Source: Blastocatellia bacterium
Lineage (GTDB): Bacteria; Acidobacteriota; Blastocatellia; UBA7656
Reading direction: 5' to 3'
Assembly (NCBI GenBank): GCA_963765495.1
Contig: CAVXWP010000001.1
Location: 1,120,001 to 1,184,000 of the forward strand
DNA length: 64,000 nucleotides
Below the pieces are notes generated by a model, which did not search any database, was not told the origin of the DNA, and saw nothing but the letters and a program-made list of their open reading frames with translations. The number at the start of each line of letters is the position of its first letter. Position 1 is the stretch's first letter. Below are positions 21,991-58,562 of the stretch, piece by piece. The translations under genes and the position numbers were made by a program.

Positions 21991-23022
21991 ATGACAACGC
22001 TGATGGCGTTTGTCGTAACTATAATCCTAGTCGCCCTCATTTTTGATTACGTCAACGGATTTCACGACGCAGCCAATTCGATTGCGACCGTAGTATCAAC
22101 GAGAGTGCTTTCGCCGGGGATAGCTGTAATCTGGGCGGCATTTTTCAATTTTATTGCCTTCCTGGTATTCGGGACCCGTGTGGCCAAAACCATCGGCGGC
22201 GACATGATCAACATCAAACTTATTGCCGAAGAGTGGCAGTTGTGGGCATTGATGTGTGGCCTCCTGGGGGCGATCATCTGGAATATTATTACCTGGTATT
22301 ACGGTCTGCCGTCGAGTTCCTCGCACGCGCTCATAGGCGGATACGCAGGCGCGTCCGTGGCCGCGCATGGCGGTTTTAGCGGTCTCTTTATAGCCACAGG
22401 ATGGATAAAGACAATAGCCTTCATATTCATCTCGCCGCTTGTCGGCATGTTTCTGGGATTTTCGTTTATGGTCGCCATAATGTGGATTTTCCGCCGTCGT
22501 TCGCCCGACCGTGTTGACAGCATATTTCGCAAGATGCAATTGATGTCGGCGGCGCTTTTCAGCCTCGGACATGGCGGAAACGACGCGCAAAAGACCATGG
22601 GCATCATTGCCGCCGTACTCGTAGCCTCAAATATCAATGCCGGTGCGACAAAAGAGATACCGCTCTGGGTGGTCCTGGTCTGCCACGCGGCCATCGGGCT
22701 GGGAACCCTTTCAGGCGGCTGGCGCATAGTCCATACGATGGGGTCGCGCATAACCAAACTCAAGCCCGTGGGCGGGTTCGCCGCTGAATCCGCCGGAGCT
22801 ACCACCATGTTTATGGCTACCTTTGGCGGCATACCCGTAAGCACTACGCATACGATAACGGGAGCCATCATGGGCGTAGGCTCTACCCGAAGGCTTTCCG
22901 CCGTGCGATGGGGGGTCGCAAGGACGGTCATCTGGGCCTGGGTACTGACCATACCTCTTTCGGCGCTGATTGCTGCCCTCTGCTTTTACCTCGTTCAATT
23001 CGCCGATAAAGCGATAAAGTAG
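21991..23022 (+). CDS. pit: Inorganic phosphate transporter, PiT family
   Basis: GFHDAANSIAT, GLPSSSSHA, HGGNDAQKTMG, PVSTTH. Confidence 0.95.
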   Translation: MTTLMAFVVTIILVALIFDYVNGFHDAANSIATVVSTRVLSPGIAVIWAAFFNFIAFLVFGTRVAKTIGGDMINIKLIAEEWQLWALMCGLLGAIIWNIITWYYGLPSSSSHALIGGYAGASVAAHGGFSGLFIATGWIKTIAFIFISPLVGMFLGFSFMVAIMWIFRRRSPDRVDSIFRKMQLMSAALFSLGHGGNDAQKTMGIIAAVLVASNINAGATKEIPLWVVLVCHAAIGLGTLSGGWRIVHTMGSRITKLKPVGGFAAESAGATTMFMATFGGIPVSTTHTITGAIMGVGSTRRLSAVRWGVARTVIWAWVLTIPLSALIAALCFYLVQFADKAIK

Positions 23023-23127
23023 TCCGTAGTCCGTGGTCCGTTGCCCGCCGTTTGCCGCAGAGTATTCGTTATCAGGAATTCGCAATTTTACAACACACCA
23101 CGAACCACGGATCACGGACAAAGGACA
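23020..23127. repeat. Heptamer-armed hairpin element, TAGTCCG/ACGGAC family
   Basis: TAGTCCG-TAGTCCG-TGGTCCG left arm starting at the pit stop codon; CCACGAA-CCACGGA-TCACGGA-CAAAGGA right arm. Confidence 0.7.
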
Positions 23128-23522
23128 CAGGGCTTATCAGAGATTATTATTGACATGCCACGAGCCTGATGTTACAAGGTTATCGGCTATAAGGCTGACC
23201 GAATATTCTGTCTTTGCCGTTCCCCACGGCCATTCAATCAGAGATCGGAGCAGCCCGGTTAGTTTTCAAACTGCCCCTGCGGTTACTGAGCTGTTATCTG
23301 TCGAACAGGTCGCTTCCCCCAGAAGTCTCTCAGTTAGCAAACAATTTATAAGTTACCAATAGCGCGCCCGCCCCCCAGGGTTTGTGGACGCGGGTGAAAG
23401 GTTTTCGGCGTATTACGCCGATTATCACGGGTGCACGGCAGGCAAGAAAGCTTGCGTTGCCGGAACCCTTCGAAAGGTGACTCCGCCTCGAATCAACAGC
23501 GAAGGCGGAACATTGTTTTAAT

Positions 23523-25262
23523 ATGTCGGCTAAACTGGGAGAGACCCTCCTAAAAGACAATCTAATAACGCCGCAGCAACTCAAAGAGGCGCTTGACTAT
23601 CAACGAGTCAACGGTGGCCGGCTCGCCTCTACGCTGGTTAAGCTCGGCATGCTATCGGATGAAGAAGTCACTGCCGTGCTGTCTCGCCAGTACGGCGTGC
23701 CCTCGGTCAATCTGGATCTGTTCGAAATTGATCCTGCGGCAGTGGCGCTCGTGCCTCAAGAGACTGCCGAACGTTACTGCGTGCTTCCGCTCTCTCGTGT
23801 CGGGGCTACGCTCACACTTGCCATGGTGGACCCGACCAATGTCTTTGCCATAGACGATATAAAGTTTATGACCGGGCTCTCGGTAGAGCCTGTCGTGGTC
23901 AGTGAAAACACTCTGCTTGCGGCAATCGCAAAGTATTACGGCACGTCACGCGAGATCGAACTTGCCCGCGTGATGGAAGACCTCGTCGCCGAGACCACAG
24001 GTAAGAACGATTACGGCGAGGAACTGGACCAGCTTGAACTTGAAGACGAAGAAGAGATAGACCTCGAAAATCTTGAGAGGATGGCCGAGGACGCTCCCGT
24101 CGTCAAACTTGTAAACGTCATACTGGTTGACGCGCTTCGACGCGGCGCTTCCGATATTCATATCGAGCCCTACGAAAAAGAGTTCCGCGTGCGCTTCCGC
24201 ATGGACGGTGTGCTTTACAACATAATGAATCCGCCGCTCAAGATGCGCGATGCGCTCACGTCAAGGATGAAGATCATGGCGCGACTCGACATCGCCGAAA
24301 AGCGTCTTCCGCAGGACGGGCGCATAAAGCTCAGAGTGCGACTCGACAATCGTTCGCGCGAACTGGATTTTCGCGTCTCGACACTGCCGACCATCTTCGG
24401 CGAAAAGATGGTGCTGCGCCTGCTCGATAAAGAGAACCTGCGGTTAGATATGACCAAGCTTGGCTTCGAAGCTGAAAGCCTTGACAAATTCAAACGCAAC
24501 ATCTCTAAACCATACGGCATGGTGCTTGTCACAGGGCCTACGGGGTCGGGCAAGACCTCTACGCTTTATTCCGCGCTTCAGAGCCTGAACACGCCGGAAA
24601 CAAATATAATGACCGCCGAAGACCCCGTAGAATTCAATCTGCCCGGCGTCAATCAGGTGCAGATGAAAGAGTCTATCGGGCTCAATTTCGCAGCCGCCCT
24701 GCGTTCGTTCCTCAGACAGGACCCGAACATCATACTGGTAGGTGAAATCCGGGATTTCGAAACCGCCGAGATAGGCGTCAAGGCCGCGCTCACAGGCCAT
24801 CTGGTCTTATCAACGCTTCATACCAACGACGCGCCTTCGACCATCAGCCGTTTAATGAACATGGGTATTGAGCCGTTTCTTGTGGCTACGTCTGTGAACC
24901 TGATTCAGGCTCAACGCCTCGTGCGCAGGATATGCAAGGATTGCAAGGTCGACCTGGCCGCGCCCGATGAGGCGATGATTGACGTGGGGTTTGCCGCAAG
25001 CGAAGTGGGCAATATAAAGACATTCAAGGGAACCGGATGCCCCAGTTGCAACGGGACCGGATACAAGGGCCGCGTGGGGCTCTATGAAGTTATGGAGATA
25101 ACCGACGAGGTGCGCGAATTGATTCTGGTCGGGGCGTCGGGCCTCGAACTGCGCCGCAAGGCGATTGAAGAGGGAATGCTGACCCTCAGAATGAGCGGCC
25201 TTGAAAAGATACGTCAGGGACTGACAACCATCGAGGAAGTGGTGAGAGAAACAGTGAAATGA
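23523..25262 (+). CDS. pilB: Type IV-A pilus assembly ATPase PilB
   Basis: MshEN-like N-terminus, ASDIHIEP, GPTGSGKTS, LRQDPNIILVGEIRD, tetracysteine motif; pilB-T-C-S-R synteny. Confidence 0.96.
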   Translation: MSAKLGETLLKDNLITPQQLKEALDYQRVNGGRLASTLVKLGMLSDEEVTAVLSRQYGVPSVNLDLFEIDPAAVALVPQETAERYCVLPLSRVGATLTLAMVDPTNVFAIDDIKFMTGLSVEPVVVSENTLLAAIAKYYGTSREIELARVMEDLVAETTGKNDYGEELDQLELEDEEEIDLENLERMAEDAPVVKLVNVILVDALRRGASDIHIEPYEKEFRVRFRMDGVLYNIMNPPLKMRDALTSRMKIMARLDIAEKRLPQDGRIKLRVRLDNRSRELDFRVSTLPTIFGEKMVLRLLDKENLRLDMTKLGFEAESLDKFKRNISKPYGMVLVTGPTGSGKTSTLYSALQSLNTPETNIMTAEDPVEFNLPGVNQVQMKESIGLNFAAALRSFLRQDPNIILVGEIRDFETAEIGVKAALTGHLVLSTLHTNDAPSTISRLMNMGIEPFLVATSVNLIQAQRLVRRICKDCKVDLAAPDEAMIDVGFAASEVGNIKTFKGTGCPSCNGTGYKGRVGLYEVMEITDEVRELILVGASGLELRRKAIEEGMLTLRMSGLEKIRQGLTTIEEVVRETVK

Positions 25263-25317
25263 TTTTATATTTTGGATTTTGGATTGGCGGCTAATCTAAA
25301 ATCTAAAATCCAAAATC
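25261..25317. repeat. Heptamer-armed hairpin, ATTTTGG/CCAAAAT family
   Basis: GATTTTATATTTTGGATTTTGGATT-ggcggct-AATCTAAAATCTAAAATCCAAAATC between pilB and pilT. Confidence 0.85.
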
Positions 25318-25329
25318 CCGGGAGGGAAA

Positions 25330-26496
25330 ATGCCAGAGATTGTTTTGAGTGATTTGTTGAGGAAGATGATCGAGATGGGCGGGTCTGACCTGCACATTAC
25401 GACCAATTCTTCGCCAATGGTCCGGGTGCACGGTGTGCTCAGGCCGCTTGAATTTGGGGAGCTATCCCCGGCCGATACGAAGCAACTGGCCTATTCTGTG
25501 TTGACCGACGCGCAGAAGCATCGCTTCGAAGAGACGCTGGAACTCGATTTCTCGTTCGGCATCAAGGGGCTGTCGCGTTTTCGCGCAAACATCTTCAACC
25601 AGCGGGGCGCGGTCGGCGCGGTATTTCGATCAATCCCGTACGAAATAAAATCATTTGAAGAGTTGGGACTGCCGGCGGTGATCGAAAAGCTTTGCGAGAA
25701 GCCACGCGGCTTGATTCTGGTCACAGGGCCTACGGGGTCGGGCAAATCGACTACGCTCGCGGCTATGATAGACAAGGTCAATCGTGACCGACACGAGCAC
25801 ATCATAACGGTCGAAGACCCGATTGAGTATCTGCATTCGCACAAGAGCTGCCTGGTGAATCAGCGTGAAGTACACGCCGACACACACTCGTTTTCAAACG
25901 CGCTCAGAGCGGCGCTTCGCCAGGACCCGGATGTTGTGCTCATCGGCGAAATGCGCGACCTCGAAACCACCGAGACCGCGCTCCGCATAGCCGAGACCGG
26001 CCACCTGACCTTTGCCACTCTGCACACCAATTCCGCGGCGTCTTCGATCAACCGCGTGATAGACATTTTCCCCGCGCACCAGCAGTCACAAATACGAACG
26101 CAACTTTCGATGGTGCTCGAAGGGATTGTCACTCAGGCCCTGCTTCCGAAAGCAAACGGACAGGGTCGCGTGCTTGCTATGGAGATACTGATTCCGAATT
26201 CCGCCATAAGAAACCTTGTGCGCGAAGATAAGGTCCACCAGATTTACTCGATGATGCAGACGGGCCAGGAAAAATACGGAATGCAGACCTTCAATCAGGC
26301 GCTTGCGAGCCTCTATTTCAAGCGGCAGATAACGCTTGAGATGGCTATGATGCGTTCGGGAGTACCGGACGAACTTCAGGATTTGATAAGTCGCGGGGCC
26401 GCCGCTCTGCAAACCGGCCAGCCGCAAATGGGAGCCCGGTCCGGCCAGGCGCAAGGCAACAGGCCGCTTTCGCCGCTCGGACGTGTGGGAAGATAG
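25330..26496 (+). CDS. pilT: Type IV pilus retraction ATPase PilT
   Basis: SDLHI, GPTGSGKSTT, ALRQDPDV, AETGHL, AIRNLVRE (AIRNLIRE motif), GMQT. Confidence 0.97.
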   Translation: MPEIVLSDLLRKMIEMGGSDLHITTNSSPMVRVHGVLRPLEFGELSPADTKQLAYSVLTDAQKHRFEETLELDFSFGIKGLSRFRANIFNQRGAVGAVFRSIPYEIKSFEELGLPAVIEKLCEKPRGLILVTGPTGSGKSTTLAAMIDKVNRDRHEHIITVEDPIEYLHSHKSCLVNQREVHADTHSFSNALRAALRQDPDVVLIGEMRDLETTETALRIAETGHLTFATLHTNSAASSINRVIDIFPAHQQSQIRTQLSMVLEGIVTQALLPKANGQGRVLAMEILIPNSAIRNLVREDKVHQIYSMMQTGQEKYGMQTFNQALASLYFKRQITLEMAMMRSGVPDELQDLISRGAAALQTGQPQMGARSGQAQGNRPLSPLGRVGR

Positions 26497-26500
26497 CATA

Positions 26501-26628
26501 AGGGATGAGGGATGAGGGATGAGGGATGAAAAGGACTCTTAGTAATTATCATATTGATTACGGAACTGCCTGTATGACATTGCGTGGTCAGGCTCCTTTT
26601 CATCCCTCATCCCTCATCCCTCATCCCT
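26501..26628. repeat. Heptamer-armed hairpin, GGGATGA/TCATCCC family, copy 1
   Basis: Perfect 35-bp inverted repeat, A(GGGATGA)4AAAGGA at 26501-26535 versus 26594-26628, with a 58-nt spacer. Confidence 0.95.
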
Positions 26629-26681
26629 CAAGAGTTGCCCCTTTAGCAGAATGCTAAACAAAAAATCAGTGAGGTTGTAAA

Positions 26682-27908: not shown

Positions 27909-28008
27909 AAAAAGAGCATCGGGGAGCTGTGGGGCAGCCACGATAAATGTATCCATTCAGGCTGCTCCTATCCCCCCTTGCTTCGGTCCCAAGGTCGGCT
28001 TGAAGGTC

Positions 28009-33101: not shown

Positions 33102-33121
33102 TCAAATCTCAAATCTCAAAT
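33102..33121. repeat. Heptamer repeat (TCAAATC)n, single arm
   Basis: TCAAATC-TCAAATC-TCAAAT; same family as 58535-58562. Confidence 0.55.
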
Positions 33122-33606: not shown

Positions 33607-35610
33607 ATGGAGTTGCACGAATGGATGGCCGGCTGGTCAAGCCGGGCGTGGCCTTTGGTTGCCGATCACCTGTGGCAGGCCACTCTGTTTTCGGCTGTCG
33701 CATTTATTGCCGTGGCGCTGCTCAGGCAAGCGCCTGCGCGGGCGCGCTACTGGGTCTGGCTCGTAGCCTCGGCAAAGTTTCTGATCCCGTCAGGTCTGTT
33801 TGTCGTGGCAGCAGATCGGCTGGGGCTGGATATATCGGCGCTCATTTTTTCGAGCGAGCAGGGGGCCAGGGCCTTTCAGATCGTCGCGCCGGTCTACTAC
33901 TTTTCTGATCAACTCATCGTAAACGTCACGGCCGGGGCGGGGCATAATGAAATCTATTGCGCTCTCACAATCATCTGGATAGCCGGATGCGGTGCGCTTG
34001 CTAGTTTGTGGAGTAAGCGACGATGGCAGTTTCAACGGGCGCTCAGGGCGGGGAAGACTGTCACCAGTGGTCGGGAAGCAGAGGTCTTAAAGAGGGTCTA
34101 TTTGTGGCTTGGCGTCAGGCAGCAGGTAAGCCTCGTGGTCTCGCCCGATGTGGCGGAGCCGGGAGTCTGGCGAATCCTCAGGCCAATCATCGTGATGCCT
34201 GAAAGCGTGGCCGATCATCTGAGTGAGGCGGAGCTTGAGGCCGTAATCATGCACGAACTGGTTCACGTCGTCCGGCGTGATAATTTGTTCAGCGCGATTC
34301 AGATGATTCTTTGTTGCCTCTTCTGGTTTCATCCCCTGGTCTGGGTGATAGATCGTAAGGCGCTCGCCGAGCGCGAGCGGGCTTGCGATGATCGGGTGGT
34401 GGAGCTTGGCGGAGCTTCAAGAGTCTATGCCACCGGTCTGTTGAAAGTTCTGCGTTTCTGCGTAGGATCGCGAATAGCCGGGATCTCTTATGCTACGGGT
34501 TCAAATCTGCGAAGGAGGGTTGAACAAATCATGGCTAATGATACGAATCGACGGCTTTCAATATCGCATCGTCTGTTGATTATAGCGACTGCGGTGATAA
34601 TGACAGTTCTGTCGTTTGCGGCCGGGGCCTTAAACCGCGACAGCGTCCTGGCCTGGCAGAAGGTAAGTTCTGCGGGGCTAGGGAAGGCGGCAGGGGAAGG
34701 CACAAGCGCGGGTGTAGGGGGCGGCCTTGGTGTAGGGGGCGGCCTTGGTGTAGGGGGTGGCCTTGGTGTAGGTGGCGGCCTTGGTGTAGGGGGCGGTGTT
34801 TCAGACGGCGTATCGAGCGACTTGATTCAAGTTGACACTTCTCAGGGAACGCTGAGCGTATCGGTGAAAGAGAAATTGTTTAAGGAACTGGAACAGGCCC
34901 CCAGAGCCTCCATCAAATTCGATAACATGTACAAAGCGCCGGTTTCAATTTCCAGCGCTTATATTCAGACCGTCAGGACCACTTCTTTTGACGCATTCAA
35001 AATCTCCGTCTCGCTCGTCAGTAATTCGGATCGTCCCATCTCCGGTTATGTAATAGAGATAAAGAATAAGGCGACTGACCTGACGCTGGAAATGTTTGGT
35101 AAGGCGCCCATCGAGCCCTATGCGTTTCAGGAAGGACTGTCGCTGACGGGGATGACAAGCGGGCTGGGCGATTCAGACGATTTAACGGCGAGGATTGCTG
35201 GCGTTTTATTCAAAAACGGTGAGACCTGGGGCGATGTGCCGCCGCCGCCGCCGCCCCCATCTTCTCTTTCTGCGCCGAGCGCACCGGCTGCGCCGCCCCC
35301 GCCGCCGCCGGCCCCGGACGCGCCCAGGGTCATTCGGAAATCAGGTGGCGGGCTTGCCAACAGTGTCGTTACGCGCGTAGACCCTGTCTATCCCGCTCTG
35401 GCCAAAGCCGCGAATGTTTCGGGCGTGGTCGTCGTCGAGATTACGATTGATGAAGCCGGTAATGTCATAAACGCGCGAGCCGTAAGTGGACATCCTCTTT
35501 TGAGAGACGCTGCATTAGATGCTGCGCGCCAGTGGACATTCGTTCCGACTCAGTTATCTGGAGAGCCGGTCAAAGTCATCGGCGCTGTGACATTCAACTT
35601 TACGCTTTAG
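33607..35610 (+). CDS. M56 (BlaR1-type) metallopeptidase fused to a TonB C-terminal domain
   Basis: HELVH zinc motif, FWFHPLVW, ERERACD; Gly-rich and Pro-rich linkers; PVYPALAKAANVSGVVVVEITIDEAGNV..W.F.P TonB_C. Confidence 0.92.
   Translation: MELHEWMAGWSSRAWPLVADHLWQATLFSAVAFIAVALLRQAPARARYWVWLVASAKFLIPSGLFVVAADRLGLDISALIFSSEQGARAFQIVAPVYYFSDQLIVNVTAGAGHNEIYCALTIIWIAGCGALASLWSKRRWQFQRALRAGKTVTSGREAEVLKRVYLWLGVRQQVSLVVSPDVAEPGVWRILRPIIVMPESVADHLSEAELEAVIMHELVHVVRRDNLFSAIQMILCCLFWFHPLVWVIDRKALAERERACDDRVVELGGASRVYATGLLKVLRFCVGSRIAGISYATGSNLRRRVEQIMANDTNRRLSISHRLLIIATAVIMTVLSFAAGALNRDSVLAWQKVSSAGLGKAAGEGTSAGVGGGLGVGGGLGVGGGLGVGGGLGVGGGVSDGVSSDLIQVDTSQGTLSVSVKEKLFKELEQAPRASIKFDNMYKAPVSISSAYIQTVRTTSFDAFKISVSLVSNSDRPISGYVIEIKNKATDLTLEMFGKAPIEPYAFQEGLSLTGMTSGLGDSDDLTARIAGVLFKNGETWGDVPPPPPPPSSLSAPSAPAAPPPPPPAPDAPRVIRKSGGGLANSVVTRVDPVYPALAKAANVSGVVVVEITIDEAGNVINARAVSGHPLLRDAALDAARQWTFVPTQLSGEPVKVIGAVTFNFTL
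34711..34800 (+). repeat. In-frame 18-bp tandem repeat x5 (GVGGGL)
   Basis: GGTGTAGGGGGCGGCCTT units with few substitutions. Confidence 0.9.
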
Positions 35611-42127: not shown

Positions 42128-42236
42128 AAGGGATGAGGGATGAAAAAGAGTCTAAGAACAGAATCCGATAAATTGACTTGGCCAAATATCGGGATGTGTC
42201 CTTAGAGTCCGTTTCATCCTTCATCCTTCATCCTTT
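42128..42236. repeat. Heptamer-armed hairpin, GGGATGA/TCATCC(C/T) family, copy 2
   Basis: (GGGATGA)2 left arm, (TCATCCT)3 right arm; inner GGACTCT(T/A)AG shared with copy 1 in opposite orientation. Confidence 0.85.
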
Positions 42237-42237: not shown

Positions 42238-43035
42238 CTACATTGCTGCTCGCGTGAGCCGGACACCGCCGTTTACTCCGCTGATCGAAATGGGGATGCC
42301 GCCTGCGCCTATGCGAGCGCGAAAGTTGTTGCGGTCCATCTTGCCCTGCAATGTCACATTCGGCACATCGGCATTCACGCTACCGTTGATTCCTGTCACA
42401 TCAAGGTCGGCATCCAGATTGTCTGCGAATCGCAACTCTACCCGACCGTTGACGCCGCTTACCTGTATGCCGCGCTCACCGAGGCGAGCTATTGTCACCG
42501 TCACTGCGCCGTTTATGCCGGATAGATCGGAATAGCCCACGGCCTGTGCCACTTCCACGCGGCCGTTTACGCCGCTTATGCGCACGGGGCCATCTACTTC
42601 GCCTACGTTGACGCGACCGTTTACGCCGCTGGTTGTAAGGTCAATCTGGCGAGGCAGACGGAGTTTTACACGTTGACGCACTTCTGGTCTGTTCCCCGAA
42701 TGATCACGCTCTTTTTCGCCGCGAATCGTCAGGCTGTTGGCGGTGTGTTCGATGATTATCTTGCGGTAGTTCAGGTCTTCGCGGGTTTTGGCCGACCGGA
42801 CTATGTATACTTCGGCTGTGCCGGTGTTTGAAGTTTCAATATCAACTGTCCCGTTTATGCCCGACACTTCAACGCGGGCGTTAGGCGCAAGTTCATAGCT
42901 CTGGCGAATCTCGTCGCGTTCCGCGAAATCGCGGTCGTCGCCTTGAGAGCTTCCCGGCAAATTGCTTGCGGCGAAAGCCGACATCGTCAATGCTGCTATC
43001 ATCATTATGGATAAGGCTATTAATCTGTTTTTCAT
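42238..43035 (-). CDS. DUF4097-like beta-strand repeat protein (secreted)
   Basis: Signal peptide; repeated SG(I/V)NG motifs; ATG at 43035 with AGGAG RBS. Confidence 0.82.
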   Translation of the reverse strand: MKNRLIALSIMMIAALTMSAFAASNLPGSSQGDDRDFAERDEIRQSYELAPNARVEVSGINGTVDIETSNTGTAEVYIVRSAKTREDLNYRKIIIEHTANSLTIRGEKERDHSGNRPEVRQRVKLRLPRQIDLTTSGVNGRVNVGEVDGPVRISGVNGRVEVAQAVGYSDLSGINGAVTVTIARLGERGIQVSGVNGRVELRFADNLDADLDVTGINGSVNADVPNVTLQGKMDRNNFRARIGAGGIPISISGVNGGVRLTRAAM

Positions 43036-43057
43036 CTCTTCTCTCCTTAATTTATAT

Positions 43058-43146
43058 GTGATTCGTGACGCGTGATTTGTGACCATTAAACAATTCGCTT
43101 ATACAAGATCGGTTGTTTGAAAATTACGCATCACGAATCACGCGTC
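43058..43146. repeat. Heptamer-armed hairpin element, GTGA/TCAC family, copy 6
   Basis: GTGATTC-GTGACGC-GTGATTT-GTGA left arm; TTACGCA-TCACGAA-TCACGCG right arm. Confidence 0.85.
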
Positions 43147-46333: not shown

Positions 46334-47035
46334 ATGAGCACATCCGACCAGGCTTTGTTGAAACTTGAAGCCGTTACAAAGGTTTTCTACACCGACGAAG
46401 TTGAAACACACGCGCTCGCAGGGATACATCTTGAGATAAATCAGGGAGAATACATCTCCATCTCCGGCCCGTCAGGTTGCGGCAAATCCACCTTGCTTTC
46501 CATACTTGGATTGCTCGATTCGCCGACGGACGGCAATTACTGGCTTGGCGGCAAACCCGTAGCCGATCTGCCGCTTGCCGAGCGCGCCCGCATTCGCAAT
46601 CGAGAGGTTGGTTTCATATTCCAGAGTTTCAATCTAATAGGCGATCTTTCGGTTTACGAGAATGTGGAATTGCCGCTCACCTATCGCGGCATGCGAGCAA
46701 GCGAGCGCAAGGAAAAAGTGCGCGCGGCGCTCGAACGAGTAGGCATGTCGCACAGGGCAAAACATCTGCCTGCCCAGTTGTCGGGCGGTCAGCAGCAGCG
46801 CGTAGCCGTTGCGCGCGCCGTGGCGGGCGACCCTCTGATACTGCTTGCCGACGAGCCTACCGGCAACCTCGACTCTACAAACGGCGAAGCGGTCATAGAT
46901 CTGTTGAAAGAGCTTCACGAAACGGGCGCAACCATCTGCATGGTCACACACGATCCTCGCTATGCCCGGCACGCCGACCGCACCGTTCACCTGTTTGACG
47001 GACGTGTGCTTGAAGAAAAGACTATGGCTGCCTGA
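46334..47035 (+). CDS. ABC transporter ATP-binding protein (MacB/LolD-like)
   Basis: GPSGCGKST, FQSFNL, LSGGQQQRV, LADEPTGNLD, VTHD. Confidence 0.96.
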   Translation: MSTSDQALLKLEAVTKVFYTDEVETHALAGIHLEINQGEYISISGPSGCGKSTLLSILGLLDSPTDGNYWLGGKPVADLPLAERARIRNREVGFIFQSFNLIGDLSVYENVELPLTYRGMRASERKEKVRAALERVGMSHRAKHLPAQLSGGQQQRVAVARAVAGDPLILLADEPTGNLDSTNGEAVIDLLKELHETGATICMVTHDPRYARHADRTVHLFDGRVLEEKTMAA

Positions 47036-47140
47036 TGCGCGATGCGTGATACGTGATTCGTGACCATTGAGGAAATGACTTTTACTTCTTAATTGCAAAT
47101 CTCACGAATCACGTATCACACATCACGTATCACACATCAC
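47033..47140. repeat. Heptamer-armed hairpin element, GTGA/TCAC family, copy 7
   Basis: Starts at the ATPase TGA; GTGATAC-GTGATTC-GTGA mirrored by TCAC-GAATCAC-GTATCAC. Confidence 0.9.
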
Positions 47141-47170: not shown

Positions 47171-49621
47171 ATGGATAGCTTACTGCAAGACCTTCGTTAT
47201 GGTTGTCGAATGCTCCTGAAGAAACCGGGCTTTACGGCTGCCGCGGTGCTGGCCCTCGCCCTGGGGATTGGCGCGAATACGGCGATCTTTAGCGTCATCA
47301 ACGCGTTATTACTCAGACCTCTGCCGTACCCGGATGCCGACAGGCTTGCGCTCGTCTGGGAAAAAGATCTAAAGACGGGCCGGCAGGTGTCAAACAATTA
47401 TGCTGACTATCTCGACTGGCAGCAGCAAACCCAATCATTCGAGGAACTGGCGGCGGCGGGCGATTCGGATTTTACCCTTTACGGCAATGACGCGGCCGAA
47501 CGCATCGACGGCGAGTGGGTAACGGCAAATTATTTTAACGCGCTCGGGATACTGCCCGTTGAGGGGCGCGCCTTTCTTCCCGATGAAAACGCTACGCCCG
47601 GCACGCATCCGGTGGTTATTTTAAGCCATGGTCTGTGGCAAAGCCGCTTCGGAGCGGACCGGAACCTTATCGGCAATACGGTAAATATAAACGGGATCAC
47701 TCTGACCGTGGTCGGAATAATGCCCGAAGGCTTTCGCGGGATAAGCGGCAAATCAGAGGTGTGGATTCCCTTTATGATGTTCGAAGCCGCAAACCCGATT
47801 CTCGCGCAGTACAAAATACTGAGCACACGTTCGACGGGCTGGCACATGGTCATAGGCCGCCTCAAACAGGGGATCACTCCCAGTCAGGCGCAGTCGGAGA
47901 TGGACGCAATCGCGGAGCGGCTCGGCGAACAATACCCAAAAACAAATGCCACCAGAGGCGCTATGGTAAGATCGGCCCGCGAAGAGCTTGTAGGCGATCT
48001 GCGACCCGCATTGCTCGTGCTGTTCGGGGCAGTCGGATTCGTGCTGTTGATAGCCTGCGCAAACGTGGCGAATCTCTTCCTCGTTCGCATGGCTGCGCGT
48101 GGGAAAGAGATGGCTATCCGTGTAGCTCTGGGCGCGAGGCGCGGGCGCTTGATACGCCAGTTGCTCACCGAAAGCCTGCTGATTTCGCTTGCAGGCGGCG
48201 CGCTCGGATTGTTACTCGCCTATTGGGGCGTGAAGTTTCTTGTAGTGTTGATTCCGGTAGAGATTCCGAGCTTTTTCTCCGTGACGATTGACGGTGGGGT
48301 TCTCGCCTTCACCTTCGCGATCTCGATTTTTACGGGCGTGATTTTTGGGCTTGCGCCCGCGACCGGAGCGGTAAAGCCCGACCTGAACGAGTCGCTGAAA
48401 GAGGGAAGTCGGACCGTGGGCGCAAGCGCGCGAGTCCGCAATCTTCGCAGTCTGCTTGCGGTCGCCGAAATTGCGCTTGCGCTCGTCCTTCTCGTAGGCG
48501 CGGGGCTTATGCTAAGAAGCTTTCAGCGTATCCGCCAGTTCGATCCGGGGTTTAATCCCGAAAATCTCCTTACAATGCGGTTCGACGTACCCAGTACGAA
48601 GTACTCCGAGTCGGAGCAGGCAGCGATCCGTCATCGCGTCCTTGAACGCGTGGCGAGTTTGCCGGGCGTGGAATCGGCGGCCATCTCTTCACACATATTT
48701 TTTGGAGGCGGATACCTGACGGGCAAGAATTCTGTCGAGTCAAGCGACGTGCCAACGCCCGATGAAGGTATATCAACTTTTCAGCAGTATCTGAGTCCAA
48801 ACTTTTTCCAGACCCTCGGTATCCCTCTTTTGAAGGGGCGCGATTTCACCGACCAGGACAACGCCGAATCTCCAAAGGTAGCCATCATCGGACAGACCTT
48901 TGCCGAGCGTTACTGGCCGGGTGAAGACCCCATAGGCAAACGCATAAAGCCGGGCCGACCCGATTCAAATAATGGCTGGATCGAGATCATAGGCGTTGTG
49001 AGCGATGTAAAACCGCGAACGCGCACGACCGACGCGAATAACTTCCCGCAGGTATATATGCCGCTGGCGCAATGGCCCGGCTGGCGTCCTGCTCTTATGG
49101 TTCGCACACGGACTGCTCCTGAAAAACTTGTTGGGAGTCTGCGCGCGGCTGTTCAGGAAATCAGCCCCGATATACCGGTCTACGAAATCGCCGCGATGCA
49201 CAAACTGCTCGCTGACAACTCGGCAGATACCCGGTTTATCGCGTTGCTGATGGGGCTGTTTGCGGGGCTTGCCGTGATAATGGCGGCGGTTGGAATCTAC
49301 AGCGTAATAGCCTATTCCGTCAGCCAGCGCACACGCGAAATAGGCATACGCATGGCGCTCGGCGCTCAAAGAATGGATGTGCTCCGGCTGGTAGTAGGGC
49401 AGGGAATAATACTGGCCCTTGCCGGGGTGGGGATCGGTCTCGGCGCGGCTCTCGCTTTGACGCGCGTCGTAGCGAGTCTGCTTTACGAAGTGAGCGCAAC
49501 CGATCCCACTATTTTTGCGGTCGTATCGCTTGGGCTAACGGCAGTGGCCTTTCTTGCCAGCTATATCCCCGCTCGAAGGGCCGCGAGGGTAGACCCGATG
49601 GTTGCGCTTCGCTACGAGTAG
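47171..49621 (+). CDS. ADOP-type duplicated MacB-like ABC permease
   Basis: LQDLRYG.R..PGF..LALGIGANTAIFS, LIACANVANL, QRTREIGIRMALGA, DPMVALRYE; ATG at 47171 with GGAGG. Confidence 0.94.
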   Translation: MDSLLQDLRYGCRMLLKKPGFTAAAVLALALGIGANTAIFSVINALLLRPLPYPDADRLALVWEKDLKTGRQVSNNYADYLDWQQQTQSFEELAAAGDSDFTLYGNDAAERIDGEWVTANYFNALGILPVEGRAFLPDENATPGTHPVVILSHGLWQSRFGADRNLIGNTVNINGITLTVVGIMPEGFRGISGKSEVWIPFMMFEAANPILAQYKILSTRSTGWHMVIGRLKQGITPSQAQSEMDAIAERLGEQYPKTNATRGAMVRSAREELVGDLRPALLVLFGAVGFVLLIACANVANLFLVRMAARGKEMAIRVALGARRGRLIRQLLTESLLISLAGGALGLLLAYWGVKFLVVLIPVEIPSFFSVTIDGGVLAFTFAISIFTGVIFGLAPATGAVKPDLNESLKEGSRTVGASARVRNLRSLLAVAEIALALVLLVGAGLMLRSFQRIRQFDPGFNPENLLTMRFDVPSTKYSESEQAAIRHRVLERVASLPGVESAAISSHIFFGGGYLTGKNSVESSDVPTPDEGISTFQQYLSPNFFQTLGIPLLKGRDFTDQDNAESPKVAIIGQTFAERYWPGEDPIGKRIKPGRPDSNNGWIEIIGVVSDVKPRTRTTDANNFPQVYMPLAQWPGWRPALMVRTRTAPEKLVGSLRAAVQEISPDIPVYEIAAMHKLLADNSADTRFIALLMGLFAGLAVIMAAVGIYSVIAYSVSQRTREIGIRMALGAQRMDVLRLVVGQGIILALAGVGIGLGAALALTRVVASLLYEVSATDPTIFAVVSLGLTAVAFLASYIPARRAARVDPMVALRYE

Positions 49622-49622: not shown

Positions 49623-49710
49623 GAGTTTTGAGTTTTGAGTAGGTGGTTCCCGGCTCCGGCGCTTTACTGACAACTGTGAACTCAAAACTCAAAACTCAAA
49701 ACTCAAAACT
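49623..49710. repeat. Heptamer-armed hairpin, GAGTTTT/AAAACTC family
   Basis: GAGTTTT-GAGTTTT-GAGT left arm; (ACTCAAA)4 right arm; between the two permease genes. Confidence 0.88.
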
Positions 49711-49730
49711 GATTGAAGGAGTGGTCACAG

Positions 49731-53328: not shown

Positions 53329-53332
53329 GTTT

Positions 53333-53409
53333 TAGACAGGATTTACAGGATTAGATTGGATTTGACAAGATTCCTGCTCAATCTTTTTTAACCCTGTAAA
53401 TCTTGTCTA
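53333..53409. repeat. Hairpin built from 9-nt ACAGGATT-type units
   Basis: TAGACAGGATTTACAGGATTA (53333-53353) pairs with TAACCCTGTAAATCTTGTCTA (53389-53409); between convergent genes. Confidence 0.85.
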
Positions 53410-54335: not shown

Positions 54336-54342
54336 TGTTCCC

Positions 54343-56073
54343 CTATTTCTGTATTAAGAAATTTCCGATAGCCAGACAATCGATGCCTGAGCAGTAAAGG
54401 CCGCGCACCGCTTCGCGAGGAGTGGCGACGACCGGCTCTCCGAAGAGATTGAATGATGTATTCAGCAATACGGGCACGCCTGACGCTTCGCCGAATTTCA
54501 TGAGCAGTTTCCAGAAGGCCCGATTGGTCTTGCGATCTACGCTGTGGACGCGCACGAGGCCGTCTCCGAATACGGCGGCCGGAATCAATGCCTCTTTATC
54601 CGGCTTGATGCGGCTTACGCCCTGAAGGAAATCGGTCAGCGTACTGGGCGTGAAAAATTCTTCGGCTCGTTCTGAGGGTACAGCGGCTGAAAAGGGGCGA
54701 AAGCCCTCTCTGTGCTTGATGAAAGTGTTCAGGTTGTCGCGCATCAGTTCGTCCACGGGCGAGGCAAGAATAGAGCGCGCGCCGAGCGTGCGCGGGCCAA
54801 ATTCCATAGCGCCCTGAAACCAGCCTGCGATCTTTCCCTGCGCAAGAGCGCGCGCCACATCGGCTATGATCTTGTCTTCCGTCAGAAAGTATTCATAGCT
54901 GATCTTGCAATTATCGAGAACGCTTTTGATCTCTTCCTCATTGAACTGCGGGCCTAAAAAAGCGTGGTCCATTTTATAGACACGCTCCGGGTTTCCAAGT
55001 ATTTGATGCCAGACGTAGAGCGCCGCGCCTATAGAGCAGCCTGCGTTGCCCGCCGCCGGTTGCACAAAGATTTGCCTGAACCCTGCGCGACGTTCGATGG
55101 CCGAATTGGCCAGGCTGTTGAGCGCAAGCCCTCCGGCAAGACAGAGATTTTCTTCGCCCGTGCGTTTGCGGTGGCAGATTGAAATCTCGCATAAAACATC
55201 CTCGATGCGCGATTGCAAACTGCAAGCGAGATTGCGGTGTTTTTGCGTCAGGGGTTCATCTTTTGCTCGCGCCTTCAAACCTGCGGTCTCAAGAAATTTT
55301 TCGGAAAGCGACGGCGCGCCTCTGGTGGTTATGTCGAAGTAATCGAGATTAACCTGCGGCAGCCCGGCGGCGTTCACCTGTAACAGGTCGCTGAATAAAT
55401 CGGCAAATTCCGCCTTACCCGTGGGCGAAAGCCACATGGTTTTATGCCAGTCGCCGTATGCGTCGAAACCGAGCCAGGCCGTGACCGCGCTATAGACCAT
55501 GCCAGGCGAATTTGGAAATATCGCCTCCCTGTCGAGGGTCAACCGATTGCCTTCGCCCCGCATCAGGGCCGTTGAACTCATATCGCCGCGATTATCAGCG
55601 GCAATGACGGCCGCTCGCTCAAAACCCGAAGCGTAAAAGGTGCTCGCTCCATGAGCCAGATGATGGTTGACCGTCAGAAATTGCCCTCCGGCAGACAAAC
55701 GCGATTCGGCGAGGCTTCTGGTTCTGAGCCGTTGTTTCAATTCGTTGAGGCTTTCGACAAAATAGCTGGGAAACTCTTCGAGAGGCGGAAGATCAGTCGT
55801 GTTGACGGCGTGCTGTGAGTGAAAGGCTATCTCGCGGTGAAAGAGCTTGTGCGGTTCCAGATAATAGGCTACGTAATCGACCTTATCGAAGGTAATCCCC
55901 GCCCGATCGAGGCAAAACTCAATGGCGCGAAAAGGCAATCCCCCGGCATAGTTCATTCCTATATGGCGAATACGCGAGAGTTTTTCTTCTTCGATAGCGG
56001 CTCGGACCCGCCCATCCACGACGATTGCAGCAGCCGCGTTTCTCTCCTGTCCGGAGATGCCAAGAATATTCAT
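54343..56073 (-). CDS. CmcH/NodU family O-carbamoyltransferase, divergent
   Basis: HHLAH, AGGLALN, EFGPR.LG.RSILA, FRPF, LLNTSFN..GEP; several conserved residues substituted. Confidence 0.88.
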   Translation of the reverse strand: MNILGISGQERNAAAAIVVDGRVRAAIEEEKLSRIRHIGMNYAGGLPFRAIEFCLDRAGITFDKVDYVAYYLEPHKLFHREIAFHSQHAVNTTDLPPLEEFPSYFVESLNELKQRLRTRSLAESRLSAGGQFLTVNHHLAHGASTFYASGFERAAVIAADNRGDMSSTALMRGEGNRLTLDREAIFPNSPGMVYSAVTAWLGFDAYGDWHKTMWLSPTGKAEFADLFSDLLQVNAAGLPQVNLDYFDITTRGAPSLSEKFLETAGLKARAKDEPLTQKHRNLACSLQSRIEDVLCEISICHRKRTGEENLCLAGGLALNSLANSAIERRAGFRQIFVQPAAGNAGCSIGAALYVWHQILGNPERVYKMDHAFLGPQFNEEEIKSVLDNCKISYEYFLTEDKIIADVARALAQGKIAGWFQGAMEFGPRTLGARSILASPVDELMRDNLNTFIKHREGFRPFSAAVPSERAEEFFTPSTLTDFLQGVSRIKPDKEALIPAAVFGDGLVRVHSVDRKTNRAFWKLLMKFGEASGVPVLLNTSFNLFGEPVVATPREAVRGLYCSGIDCLAIGNFLIQK

Positions 56074-56143
56074 GTGAGAATCCGTTCCCTGTCCGTTCCG
56101 AATAAAGCCGAACGCATATCAATAACATTCGGGAGCGGTGTTT

Positions 56144-57028
56144 TCAAGCAAGCTCGCTCGACTTGAGCCCTGCCTTGAGCGCCACGGCGAGCAGGAGCAA
56201 AACCGCGCCCGTCAGGATCATTGAGAGGGCCGAGCCAAAAGGCTGGTTCAATTGCGAGAATTGATTTTGTATTAGGTTGCCGATCATCACGGATTTTGCG
56301 CCGCCTAATAAATCGGGCGTGATGAAGGCTCCAAGCGACGGGATGAATACGAGCACGACTCCGGCAATAAGGCCGGGACGCGAGAGCGGCAATGTGACTT
56401 TCGCAAAGGTCCAGAAGGGATTGGCCCCCAGGTCCTGAGCCGCTTCAAGCAAACGGGTGTCGAGCCGTTCCAGCGCGACATAAACGGGTAAAATCATGAA
56501 GGGCAACTCGCCGTATACCTGTCCTAAGAGGACCGCGAAATCCGTATAAAGCAGCTTGAGCGGCTCATGTATCAATCCTGAATGCAGGAGAATCGAATTT
56601 ATTACGCCTTCGCTGCGAAGCAGCAATATCCACGCATAGGTCCTTATCAAAAAACTTGTCCAGAAGGGAATTACCGTCAGCACCAGGAGCATGCGCCTCC
56701 ATTTGACGGGCGCTCTCAAGGCTATGTAGTAAGCTGCCGGAAAGCTGACTATGACACAGAGCATGGTCGTGAGCGTTGCTATCCATATCGTGCGCCAGTA
56801 AGCCGCGAGGTAAAGCGGGTCTATCGAGCGCAGATAATTGACCGGGCTGAAATCATATATGATCCTGCCGTAGGGGCCGCGCACGGCAAAGCTCACGACG
56901 ATGATTACGATGAGCGGTCCAACGACAAAAGCGAGCAGCCAGACAAGCGCCGGCGCAAGCAACAGCCTTGCCGGTCTGTTGTTCTTTTCACCTGCGCGCA
57001 ACTTTACCTCTTTTTTACCTGTAGCCAT
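56144..57028 (-). CDS. potB: Polyamine ABC transporter permease (PotB-like)
   Basis: IPFWTSFLIRTYAW, LPFMILP, LLEAAQDLGA, FITPDLLGG; start at 57028 (ATG) or 57043 (TTG). Confidence 0.9.
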   Translation of the reverse strand: MATGKKEVKLRAGEKNNRPARLLLAPALVWLLAFVVGPLIVIIVVSFAVRGPYGRIIYDFSPVNYLRSIDPLYLAAYWRTIWIATLTTMLCVIVSFPAAYYIALRAPVKWRRMLLVLTVIPFWTSFLIRTYAWILLLRSEGVINSILLHSGLIHEPLKLLYTDFAVLLGQVYGELPFMILPVYVALERLDTRLLEAAQDLGANPFWTFAKVTLPLSRPGLIAGVVLVFIPSLGAFITPDLLGGAKSVMIGNLIQNQFSQLNQPFGSALSMILTGAVLLLLAVALKAGLKSSELA

Positions 57029-57039
57029 AACCTGCCGGA

Positions 57040-57417
57040 TCAATCAACATAGATGGCGATCACCGCGCGCTCTCTTTTTCTGAGCTTGCTGAAAAAGTCT
57101 CCCAGCCTTTTCATCAGGCCATATTTTTTATTGAGCAATCTGTGACCTCGCGCTGCGCCCTCCTCATCCTGAATGACGGTTCTTGCATCCACCCACTCGC
57201 CTTTCAGCTTTCCGCGAAAGTCACAGGGAGCTATGCGCGCGCGCGGGTTGTTGCGCAGGCGTTTTACTTTGCCCGCGTTGGCAAGCGAGTAGATGTAAAT
57301 CGCGCCATCGGTTTCGGCAAACCAGACGGGCGTTTGCACCGGGGCCCCGGTTTTTCTATAGGTTTCGAGGTTCAGGTATTGTTCATTCTTGAATTGAGCG
57401 AGCCTGTTATTGCTCAT
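57040..57417 (-). CDS. PPOX class F420-dependent oxidoreductase family (split-barrel) protein
   Basis: YLNLETYRKTG..TPVWF..GKVKRLRNNP..PCD.RG..KKYG; ATGA overlap with the potA stop. Confidence 0.88.
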   Translation of the reverse strand: MSNNRLAQFKNEQYLNLETYRKTGAPVQTPVWFAETDGAIYIYSLANAGKVKRLRNNPRARIAPCDFRGKLKGEWVDARTVIQDEEGAARGHRLLNKKYGLMKRLGDFFSKLRKRERAVIAIYVD

Positions 57418-58508
57418 AGGTTTTTCTCTTTCTGAGGGCGCAGCATCACGGCGCTTTGCGCCTCCCAACTGATTGTGACCGGCTGGCCGATCCTGTTTTG
57501 GGTCGAGCCGGAAGCTTCGCGGTTTTGCTCAAGGACGATTATCTCCTGCCCGCTTTCGATAACTATTCGCCACTGTGTGCTCTCGCCAAGATAGACGGCC
57601 GAGGCCACCCGTCCGCGCAGTAACCCACCCGAACCGTTTTGCGAAAGCGTGATCTTTTCCGGTCTGATCATAACGCGCACTCTGTCGCCGGGGTTGACCC
57701 CGTTGCTGAGAACTTCGATCTGCGCGTTGCCGAGACTTATGATCGAAATATGATCGCGCACATTTTCCACAGTGCCTTCTATGATGTTGGATACGCCTAT
57801 GAAATCGGCCACAAATTCGGTTTCGGGGCGTTCGTAAATCTCCTGCGCGCTCCCTATCTGCTCGATGTCTCCGGCGTTCATGACCGCCACGCGGTCGCTC
57901 ATCGTCAGCGCCTCTTCCTGATCGTGAGTCACATAGACAAAGCTGATGCCGAGCCGTCGCTGCAAGCTTTTCAATTCAAGCTGCATCTGTTTTCTGAGCT
58001 TGAAATCGAGAGCGGCGAGCGGTTCGTCAAGCAACAATACGCGAGGCTCAAGCACGAGCGCGCGAGCAAGAGCCACGCGCTGCTGCTGCCCGCCGGATAG
58101 CTCGGCAGGTCTTCTCTTTTCGAGCCCCGACAGGCGGACCATTTCAAGAGCCTTGACGACGCGCTTCTGTATTTCATTGCGCGCCACACGCCGCCGCTCC
58201 AATCCGAAGGCGCAATTATCGAATACGTCCATGTGAGGGAATAGCGCGTAGTGCTGAAACACCGTGGTGACATCGCGGCGGTAGGGTGGCACGTCCGTAA
58301 CATCGTGCCCGCCGAGTATTACGCGGCCTTCGTCGGGTATCTCAAAGCCCGCGATCATCCTGAGCAGCGTAGTCTTCCCGCAACCCGAGGGGCCCAACAG
58401 GGTCAGGAATTCAGCCCGACGCACGCCAAGCGATACTCGGTGAACCGCCGCGACATCGGTGAACTTCCTGGTGACGTTTACCAGTTCGACTTCTAAGGCA
58501 TCTTCCAT
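57414..58508 (-). CDS. potA: Polyamine ABC transporter ATP-binding protein (PotA-like)
   Basis: GPSGCGKTT, VFQHYALFPHM, LSGGQQQRV, VTHDQEEAL, TOBE domain. Confidence 0.92.
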   Translation of the reverse strand: MEDALEVELVNVTRKFTDVAAVHRVSLGVRRAEFLTLLGPSGCGKTTLLRMIAGFEIPDEGRVILGGHDVTDVPPYRRDVTTVFQHYALFPHMDVFDNCAFGLERRRVARNEIQKRVVKALEMVRLSGLEKRRPAELSGGQQQRVALARALVLEPRVLLLDEPLAALDFKLRKQMQLELKSLQRRLGISFVYVTHDQEEALTMSDRVAVMNAGDIEQIGSAQEIYERPETEFVADFIGVSNIIEGTVENVRDHISIISLGNAQIEVLSNGVNPGDRVRVMIRPEKITLSQNGSGGLLRGRVASAVYLGESTQWRIVIESGQEIIVLEQNREASGSTQNRIGQPVTISWEAQSAVMLRPQKEKNL

Positions 58509-58534
58509 CGCAACATACGATCTCCCGCCGTGGG

Positions 58535-58562
58535 TCTGAGATTTGAAATCTGAAATCTCAGA
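58535..58562. repeat. Short heptamer hairpin, TGAGATT/AATCTCA family
   Basis: TCTGAGATTT-gaaatctg-AAATCTCAGA between ligA and potA. Confidence 0.7.

Follow-up and report, generated by a model that had tools for sequence, protein, structure and literature searches.

Tandem-heptamer hairpins behind stop codons in a Blastocatellia genome, probable gene-less relatives of palindromic S23p cassettes

We analysed a stretch of 64,000 nt (the window) from a Blastocatellia bacterium (GenBank GCA_963765495.1, contig CAVXWP010000001.1), which corresponds to G000:C1:1120001-1184000 in our numbering of a 7.3-Mb genome (17 contigs, 54% G+C, 97.9% complete). The window carries intergenic elements built from tandem heptamers, and this report concerns these elements and their link to small genes of the S23p family (PF05635/TIGR02436). 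The original prediction, made from the letters alone, had listed seven such loci as arm–core–arm structures rebuilt from unrelated heptamers. All seven are present where it placed them, as seen in the sequence and in the rows of Tandem Repeats Finder (TRF), and all seven lie between open reading frames (ORFs), with the arrays at 23020 and 25261 overlapping the upstream TAG and TGA stops, respectively (Table 1). Six of the seven fold into long hairpins, with RNA folding z-scores between −2.65 and −12.2 against dinucleotide shuffles, and the seventh, at 33102, is the lone arm that it had been taken for. Gene positions are from our own rough ORF calling (5485 ORFs, 85% coverage) combined with Pfam.

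Table 1. Heptamer elements of the window and S23p genes elsewhere in the genome that lie between arms of the same units. Plain numbers are window positions.
Feature	Position	Arms and other details	Source
Hairpin element, TAGTCCG/GTAGTCC unit	23019..23128	5' arm 23019-23041 (GTAGTCC x3.3); 3' arm ~23100-23128, degenerate	TRF
Hairpin element, RGATTTT unit	25261..25317	25261-25285 (GATTTTG) / 25293-25317 (AATCTAA); 7-nt loop	TRF
Hairpin element, AGGGATG unit	26501..26630	26501-26529 (AGGGATG x4.1) / 26600-26630 (TCATCCC x4.4)	TRF
Lone C/A-rich arm, GAGATTT family	33102..33121	TCAAATC x2.9	TRF
Second AGGGATG/AAGGATG element	42129..42235	42129-42143 / 42213-42235	TRF
Hairpin element, GAGTTTT unit	49623..49710	49623-49640 (GAGTTTT) / 49679-49710 (AACTCAA)	TRF
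Tight 11-bp hairpin, GAGATTT/AAATCTC unit	58534..58562	array 58535-58558; fold z −3.37	TRF
TGATNCG-family element, same class, outside the original list	21858..21972	21858-21875 / 21917-21972	TRF
TGATNCG-family element	47029..47140	47029-47063 / 47102-47140	TRF
TGATNCG-family element, 5' side of ligA	60757..60866	60757-60794 / 60834-60866	TRF
TGATNCG-family left arm and core	63941..64000	right arm just past the window end (G000:C1:1183941-1184056)	TRF
S23p gene, RGATTTT arms (as in 25261..25317)	G000:C1:951913		PF05635
S23p gene, AGGGATG arms (as in 26501..26630)	G000:C7:193590		PF05635
S23p gene, GAGTTTT arms (as in 49623..49710)	G000:C1:1070945		PF05635

The elements sit tightly against their neighbours. 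The TAG stop of a PHO4-family transporter gene (21991–23022) is part of the first unit of the 23019 element, which folds with z −2.65. The 25261 element (−22.8 kcal/mol, z −6.19) separates a pilB-like gene, whose TGA stop at 25260–25262 is overlapped by the array, from a pilT-like gene starting at 25330; the 26501 element (−87.2 kcal/mol, z −12.2) follows 4 nt past the pilT-like stop and 52 nt ahead of the pilC-like start, and its core of 70 nt is the usual length for the AGGGATG family. The core of the 42129 element (z −6.40) belongs to the same core family, and its right arm ends 2 nt off the stop of a minus-strand gene (42238–43086). Two MacB/FtsX-like permease genes are separated by the 49623 element (z −4.89), which begins 1 nt after a TAG stop (49619–49621). 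The 58534 hairpin lies between a minus-strand ABC-ATPase gene that starts at 58508 and the ligA stop (58566), and the lone arm is located after a sodium:solute symporter gene, with no partner arm within 300 nt and an RNA fold no better than shuffles (z +0.84). The inverted right arm that had been read into the six hairpins needs qualification at two of them, as the one at 23100–23128 is degenerate and 58535 is a single tight hairpin rather than two separated arms. No ORF was found between the arms at any of the seven loci, where cores span 0–70 nt, and we therefore class them as gene-less derivatives and not as intervening sequences (IVS); the helix-45 location of the latter in 23S rRNA is also not seen, all seven lying between protein-coding genes. 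An Rfam scan of the window gave only one tRNA at gathering score, and no element matched any family.

The architecture extends over the whole genome. Period 7 accounts for 1641 of 4768 TRF rows, and when exact arrays were counted (at least 2 copies plus 3 nt), we found 954 of period 7 compared with 189 of period 6 and 29 of period 8, which bears out the expected enrichment of this period. On contig C1, 168 exact period-7 arrays compare with 2 in an order-3 Markov copy. After merging, 1610 period-7 arrays with 202 canonical units remained. Pairing of the arms, the other expectation, is equally clear: of 560 array pairs that neighbour each other at no more than 400 nt, 469 share a unit in inverted orientation and 4 are direct, the remaining 87 being of other kinds, and the median gap is 45 nt. 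Moreover, 183 of 672 unpaired arrays possess a degenerate inverted partner, compared with 9 in the control. The rule that the left arm is G/T-rich holds in 462 of the 469 inverted pairs and in 179 of the 183 degenerate ones, and the 5' arms contain 41% G and 12% C. Because an inverted repeat reads alike on both strands, a G-rich 5' arm is an intrinsic handedness of the element.

Named by their G-rich strands, the pairs fall into the families TGATNCG (216 pairs), AGGGATG (66), AGGCAGT (53), GGGGNCN (46), GAGTTTT (38) and RGATTTT (21); GAGATTT copies are mostly tight or one-armed, and TAGTCCG is among the rarer units. The description of the heptamers as unrelated is right for the set, in that eight main units are as distant from one another as random heptamers of equal composition (mean pairwise distance 3.43 vs 3.36), but not for GGATTTT, GAGTTTT and GAGATTT, which are 1–2 substitutions apart. 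The idea that the period and the hairpin are conserved and the sequence is not applies between families, where a short period, an inverted layout and a fixed polarity are common and the units differ. Within most families, in contrast, 5–6 of the 7 unit positions are kept at 92–99%, leaving one or two soft positions, mainly G/A or C/T. Nor is the period always 7, as some S23p clades hold 8- or 9-nt units. The hairpin itself looks weakly maintained: the complementarity of arms to their own partners barely exceeds that to partners drawn at random from the family (0.836 vs 0.823 for TGATNCG and 0.862 vs 0.824 for GGGGNCN), and arm lengths are uncorrelated (r = 0.09), with a median of 29 nt in either arm of gene-less copies. 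Adjacent units agree at the soft base in 0.61 of cases where 0.36 is expected, and units of partner arms in 0.445, which argues that arms grow by local duplication, largely independently of each other. An enzyme that adds 7-mers, as proposed, could be a maker of the repeats; the duplication of local units seen here is a signature of slippage. The soft base of TGATNCG is independent of the arm and of gene direction. Cores have lengths typical of their family (44, 70 and 87 nt), occur in both orientations (601 vs 602 BLAST hits), and some core modules are common to several arm families; the core motif of the 49623 element is also found between AGGCAGT arms. Nesting of elements was considered as the cause of hot spots and rejected, since a strict scan gave 0 cases and a looser one 11 candidates, of which about 5 enclose an array of an unrelated unit, which is too few.

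Four genes of the genome encode S23p proteins (Avd-like), and all four are enclosed by inverted heptamer arms whose unit differs from gene to gene (GGGGCCA, GAGTTTT, AGGGATG and RGATTTT). Three of these are the units of listed window loci, and all four rank among the commonest gene-less families of the genome. Each of the four cassettes starts directly past the stop of a co-directional gene. The proteins share 15–21% identity with the first of the four, and all match TIGR02436 with E-values of 1e-25 to 1e-35; one matches the structure of XCC0516 (PDB 2GSC; E 2.6e-26) and, weakly, the Avd model NF033474 at E 4.6e-7, its 30.1 bits lying under the 80-bit cut-off. S23p domains are mostly basic, with a median pI of 9.1 (n = 71). 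The median arm is 32 nt in S23p copies and 29 nt in gene-less ones, i.e. a stem of about 30 bp as in an IVS. For the ORF at C7:193590, the called start is an ATG within its own arm. The suggestion of a common maker or reader of the repeats thus becomes plausible with S23p as the candidate, given that 4/4 genes lie between arms and that arrays are almost confined to genomes with S23p.

The same packaging is found far outside this genome. PF05635 is present in 87 of 151 Acidobacteriota genomes, a tally that takes in G049 and G024 by counts only, and 24 of 30 S23p loci fetched from this phylum are framed by inverted arms in the TRF calls, with a period of 7 in 18 loci, 8 in 5 and 9 in 1. In Cyanobacteriota, 25 of 61 sampled genomes hold S23p, and the 30 hits, which include the overlapping L349 and L368, comprise 18 two-armed, 11 one-armed and 1 without arms. 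Over all loci fetched before this cyanobacterial set, both arms were seen in 47 of 77 hits, one arm in 25 and none in 5, in a set that includes a few overlaps (L301 repeats L001; L168 overlaps L169). The handedness is also kept, with G exceeding C in the 5' arm of 42 of 46 two-armed foreign cassettes and of 17 of 18 in cyanobacteria. In Xanthomonas arboricola, the S23p gene lies between accB and accC with arms GGGATTC/GAATCCC. S23p genes packaged between repeat arrays are therefore common to Acidobacteriota, Cyanobacteriota and Xanthomonadales, and in the literature, searched with supplements outside the search, we found no paper that states a general link between S23p and such arrays.

We also compared array density in 28 further genomes, using 27–100 kb of each and choosing them by usable contig sizes, blind to repeats. 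In the 14 S23p-free genomes (1015 kb), exact period-7 arrays number 4 and inverted pairs 1, whereas the 14 that have five or more S23p matches (1120 kb) gave 70 arrays, with inverted pairs in 10 of 14. The contrast holds within one family (G169 and G163 vs G167, G158 and the window genome) and within one genus (G125 vs G113). A quick tree built from 71 S23p domains shows near proteins from different genera with shared units, such as ATTTTGG (L004/L309), AGGCAGT (L011/L292), AGTCGGT/AGCCGGT (L310/L311) and ACTAGGG (L024/L034), and octamer units in two separate clades. Gene and arms thus travel together, and the period is a trait of the lineage. An S23p gene is present in 5/5 genomes chosen for holding GGGAATC arrays, and a scan for GGGAATC ×5 found 124 stretches in many phyla. 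Among the 80 loci fetched from these, five perfect units were seen in Xanthomonadales, several cyanobacterial genera, Acidobacteriota, Gemmatimonadota, Vibrio, Balneolales, Planctomycetaceae and Elusimicrobia; that phyla so far apart have a unit in common speaks for its horizontal spread.

To follow single sites, the pilB–pilT–pilC region was compared in 15 genera of the same family, with the post-pilB spacer readable in 15 genomes including our own (it is cut off in L271). This spacer holds hairpins of differing units in 10 of the 15, a remnant in 1, and is empty or plain in 4. The units are RGATTTT in 3 genomes (including our own), GTGTCAG-like in 3, GGATTGC, GAATTGA and TGGTTAT in 1 each, and a compound array in 1. 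The post-pilT spacer carries AGGGATG in 3 genomes and other units in 4, the rest being empty or plain. In one of these three, L272 (G169), the post-pilT AGGGATG/AAGGATG hairpin has only a 4-nt loop where our genome has a 70-nt core; the core thus acts as a separable module. No elements were found at these sites in order- and class-level relatives. Sister genera carry different units; however, a PilT tree of 21 orthologues is star-like, with 8 of 18 inner branches open, and fails to separate repeated insertion from replacement in place or vertical descent with turnover.

Observed in these data are the architecture, polarity and position of the elements, their family structure, the gene link, the co-occurrence across genomes and the co-divergence of protein and unit. 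We consider that the listed loci probably belong, as gene-less copies, to different lineages within a single class of selfish palindromic S23p cassettes of the IVS type. A full cassette consists of a short tandem array, a core with an S23p gene and the inverted array; the unit of the arrays is specific to the lineage and usually 7 nt long, and its G-rich strand is 5'. The core gene encodes a small four-helix-bundle protein homologous to Xanthomonas XCC0516 and distantly to Avd of diversity-generating retroelements (DGRs). This design is that of the ORF-bearing 23S rRNA IVS, but placed between ordinary genes right after a stop codon, and the short copies would have retained the arms and swapped the gene for a core of 7–115 nt. 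More tentatively, and at somewhat less than even chances, the S23p pentamer may read the unit that its own lineage repeats; such reading would account for a period and 5–6 of 7 positions that stay constant inside a lineage and change from one lineage to the next. Copy number would drift through slippage, the stem of about 30 bp, once transcribed, might be cut by RNase III as in rRNA IVS, and the cassettes would spread by some route. Support in print is limited to the Coxiella IVS (PMC4990558) and the paired Xanthomonas arrays (PMC4692102).

Several results weigh against this cassette scenario. The TGATNCG (216 pairs), AGGCAGT and GAGATTT families have no S23p copy in the 97.9%-complete genome, and no S23p ORF lies within 700 nt of any of the 80 fetched GGGAATC ×5 stretches (of 124). 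Four of the 14 S23p-rich genomes have no inverted pair in 40–60 kb, while G169 has no S23p match yet shows a few degenerate hairpins, and the single S23p of G161 has a unit unlike those of the two gene-less hairpins at its pilT locus. The sampled relatives are not independent, and we attach no P value to the co-occurrence. Physical linkage alone would yield co-divergence of protein and unit, so that the latter does not prove recognition. S23p carries no known catalytic motif. Comparing filled and empty pilB–pilT spacers, we saw no target-site duplication, although no systematic search for duplications was made. No transposase is linked to the elements, nor was a fresh insertion seen. A borrowed enzyme was looked for and rejected: the reverse transcriptase (RT) genes of the genome are group II intron-like and far from S23p, with none adjoining it, and neither of its two Y1_Tnp genes is bordered by heptamer arrays, so that neither an RT nor a REP-associated tyrosine transposase (RAYT) is linked to the elements as a mobilising enzyme.

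The placement of the elements relative to genes bears on another explanation. Their contexts are co-directional in 266 cases, convergent in 104 and divergent in 23, with 75 centred in a called ORF, whereas all spacers of the genome number 3860, 808 and 800 for the three orientations; divergent spacers are thus depleted (23/393 elements vs 800/5468 spacers). The distance from stop codon to arm has a median of +1 nt and an interquartile range of −5 to +6 (n = 474 ends). This close fit to stops and the scarcity between divergent genes would be expected if the repeats were born by slippage, with about 7 nt held by the replicative polymerase, and inverted pairs were then kept by the host as post-stop hairpins that protect mRNA 3' ends or punctuate operons, like the repetitive extragenic palindromic (REP) sequences of E. 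coli, with S23p genes as passengers. The agreement of neighbouring units at the soft base and the occupancy of the pilB–pilT spacer in most sister genera speak for it as well. So does the literature (papers with a PMC number are cited from excerpts throughout): among long simple sequence repeats, heptanucleotides are the most abundant class in the majority of bacterial genomes, and it has been proposed that the polymerase contacts 7 nt (Mrazek, as summarised in PMC4679880). Nonetheless, we regard this account as unlikely. A polymerase property should extend to relatives, yet arrays are nearly absent from S23p-free relatives of similar G+C (G125, G163 and G169); periods of 8 or 9 occur in some lineages, and hundreds of dispersed copies agree at 5–6 of 7 positions. 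T-tracts (at least 4 T within 12 nt) past the 3' arm occur in 6.9% of 938 flanks, close to the 5.5% of intergenic controls, which speaks against an intrinsic (Rho-independent) terminator. No preference for the sense strand was found, as G·U-compatible mismatches number 131 in sense and 136 in antisense, and folding is better in sense for 139 and in antisense for 123 elements (p = 0.16). Cores point with or against transcription at random (15:12, 16:9, 7:3, 2:6, 5:0 and 0:3), and the arms, as noted, hardly favour their own partners.

Stop codons were also considered as the source of the polarity. Stop codons in the 5' arm close every one of the three frames for 345 of 469 elements, compared with 179 of 469 when units are shuffled, and 401 of 469 have a 3' arm that leaves every frame open. 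As a cause of the polarity this holds in part only: units without stops still keep the G-rich 5' arm, and three-frame closure is seen in only 17–20 of 46 S23p cassettes of other genomes, which argues that stop codons are not a full account. The AGGGATG unit (26501–26529; G000:C7:193586-193600) includes ATGA, a start/stop overlap, behind a Shine–Dalgarno-like GGGA/GAGG run, and an array of it therefore gives each of the three frames both stops and starts.

The fixed polarity invites a further explanation, namely that the repeats are written. Synthesis in the manner of telomerase would make them unit by unit from a short template on either side of a break or insertion site, with S23p as an accessory, as Avd is for the DGR RT; the 7-mer-adding enzyme of the original prediction matches this explanation. 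The arms would then be two telomere-like G-rich 3' extensions facing the core, in keeping with the handedness of 462/469 pairs and 42/46 cassettes, and their independence in length and variant order, as well as the different units at the same orthologous spacer in sister genera, would fit. S23p is related to Avd by the sub-threshold NF033474 match and by structure (PMC10053308, excerpt). On the other side, the only RTs found in the genome are the group II intron-like ones away from S23p, later slippage by itself would make the arms independent, and no template RNA was identified and no event observed; we therefore hold this explanation to be very unlikely. A bolder form, to which we give a similarly slim chance, is that arms are written afresh at each insertion, with a template-holding S23p pentamer directing the synthesis of G-rich repeats, unit by unit, at the 3' end on either side of the core. 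It would explain why the polarity is universal, why the two arms are independent and how one unit comes to replace another at one orthologous spacer. If it were true, the period (7, 8 or 9 nt) and the unit would be read-outs of the S23p lineage, the cassettes would be a bacterial repeat-adding system and S23p proteins would be programmable, unit-specific readers of nucleic acid.

Returning to the cassette scenario, what it would add concerns two old problems. To our knowledge, S23p/TIGR02436 proteins have lacked an assigned function ever since their discovery in the intervening sequences of rRNA, and we know of no explanation for the over-representation of heptamers in bacteria, noted for decades in cyanobacterial tandem heptamers (STRR), in Mrazek's survey as cited in PMC4679880 and by Rehm et al. 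in 2015. The tie between S23p and heptamers hands each problem a testable handle, i.e. whether a given S23p binds its own unit. If it does, the family would be a natural collection of small proteins, every one specific for a short repeat of its own.

A protein reader could also belong to the host. CspB, a cold-shock-domain protein, takes heptamer direct repeats with one protein per heptamer (reviewed in PMC4679880), and the 5' arms are G/T-rich, so a host single-strand binder with a 7-nt footprint could make the arrays post-transcriptional regulatory sites. Such binding is of weak specificity, which cannot account for at least eight sharply different units, each with 5–6 fixed positions. The restriction to S23p-bearing genomes would be left unexplained, and no strand preference relative to transcription is seen. 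We judge this reading improbable to a high degree.

Known repeats of Xanthomonas resemble the elements most directly in layout. GGGAATC arrays form 70–75 convergent pairs per genome in X. campestris and X. axonopodis, mostly intergenic, lying 28 nt from the upstream ORF end and 160 nt from the next ORF, and rare between divergent genes (Rehm et al. 2015, PMC4692102). Tandem heptamers, convergent arrays, intergenic siting and nearness to the upstream ORF end are thus shared. The Xanthomonas genomes, however, have one dominant unit, read as a former of G-quadruplexes (G4), whereas at least eight unlike units coexist here, mostly free of G-runs and with cores of their own. In vitro G4 formation is reported for GGGAATC and GGGGA(C/T)T (Rehm et al., PMC4692102), and AGGGATG and GGGGCCG arrays do hold at least 4 G-runs. 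However, TAGTCCG, ATTTTGG, GAGTTTT, TGAGATT and TGATNCG have no G-run and yet the same architecture, and among the listed units GGG occurs only in GGGATGA (26501 and 42128), the others being without a G-run; that the elements are G-quadruplexes, as proposed for Xanthomonas, is accordingly most improbable. In the excerpt of that paper, no link to S23p is made and 'four-helix bundle' has 0 occurrences (PMC4692102).

The closest parallel in gene content is the rRNA IVS of Coxiella burnetii and Leptospira, where an S23p ORF sits in the loop of a stem of about 28–30 bp formed by terminal inverted repeats (PMC4990558). In the Coxiella 23S IVS, tandem heptamers lie upstream of the S23p ORF, the stem is 28 bp and RNase III cuts at the first repeat; the heptamers vary in copy number at the 5' side as here, and the IVS is viewed as selfish and possibly mobile (PMC4990558). 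It differs in its place within helix 45 of 23S rRNA and in its excision by RNase III (PMC4990558), whereas the present elements follow the stops of protein genes and have mostly lost the ORF. PF05635 also resembles Avd (4DWL vs 2GSC), with a homologous four-helix-bundle fold (PMC10053308); unlike DGR Avd, the genes here have no adjoining RT or template/variable repeat, and the match stays at 30.1 bits under the 80-bit NCBIfam cut-off.

Heptamers in cyanobacteria offer another comparison. The short tandemly repeated repetitive (STRR) sequences that Mazel et al. are said to have described in 1990 reportedly are dispersed tandem heptamers in intergenic DNA. For Anabaena GGGGA(C/T)T, only a few inverted pairs were reported (Rehm et al., PMC4692102), unlike our finding that cyanobacterial S23p genes are framed by inverted 7–8-nt arrays in 18 of 30 hits, with one arm in 11. 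TAACTGA repeats of Beggiatoaceae, Cyanobacteria and Bacteroidetes are likewise patchy heptamer arrays that cross phyla, and their forward orientation closes three frames, but they are direct arrays just upstream of starts, with 1 indirect repeat in 170 sets (PMC4679880). As regards MITEs, which are small transposable elements with inverted repeats, inverted arms are present here.

REP sequences and their paired forms (REPINs) are dispersed palindromes at gene ends with many gene-less copies, and the associated RAYT gene is flanked by cognate repeats, much like the heptamer elements. REP arms are not tandem arrays, and the RAYT gene encodes an HUH nuclease; a cognate Y1 (HUH) gene flanked by repeats was not found for the heptamer arrays. 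A separate REP system exists beside the heptamer elements, as a RAYT-like Y1 transposase gene (G000:C17:144080-144565) has GTAG-type palindromes, GTAGGGGCAGGGCTTGTCCCCGCCCGG, on both sides. The group II intron-type RT/maturase genes include those at G000:C2:554971-559270, one of them apparently split by the insertion of another, and others at contig ends of C8 and C9, which suggests a multi-copy intron that breaks the assembly.

The elements also mislead annotation, as they provide stop codons, false starts and long spurious ORF extensions, e.g. for the ORFs called at 47093 and 60815. The called starts of two MacB-like genes (47093 and 49713) are TTG codons that overlap or abut heptamer arms and give false N-terminal extensions. 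The ligA ORF as called (58566–60815, minus strand, 749 aa), whose adenylation domain is matched in two stretches, has a TTG start that extends into the 60757–60866 element, and the true start probably lies further downstream. A repeat of another kind was noted in the window: an 18-nt tandem repeat, GGTGTAGGGGGCGGCCTT ×4.8 (34711–34796; TRF score 158), lies inside a 667-aa ORF (33607–35610) beside a BlaI-type repressor gene and, being in frame, encodes a 6-residue protein repeat.

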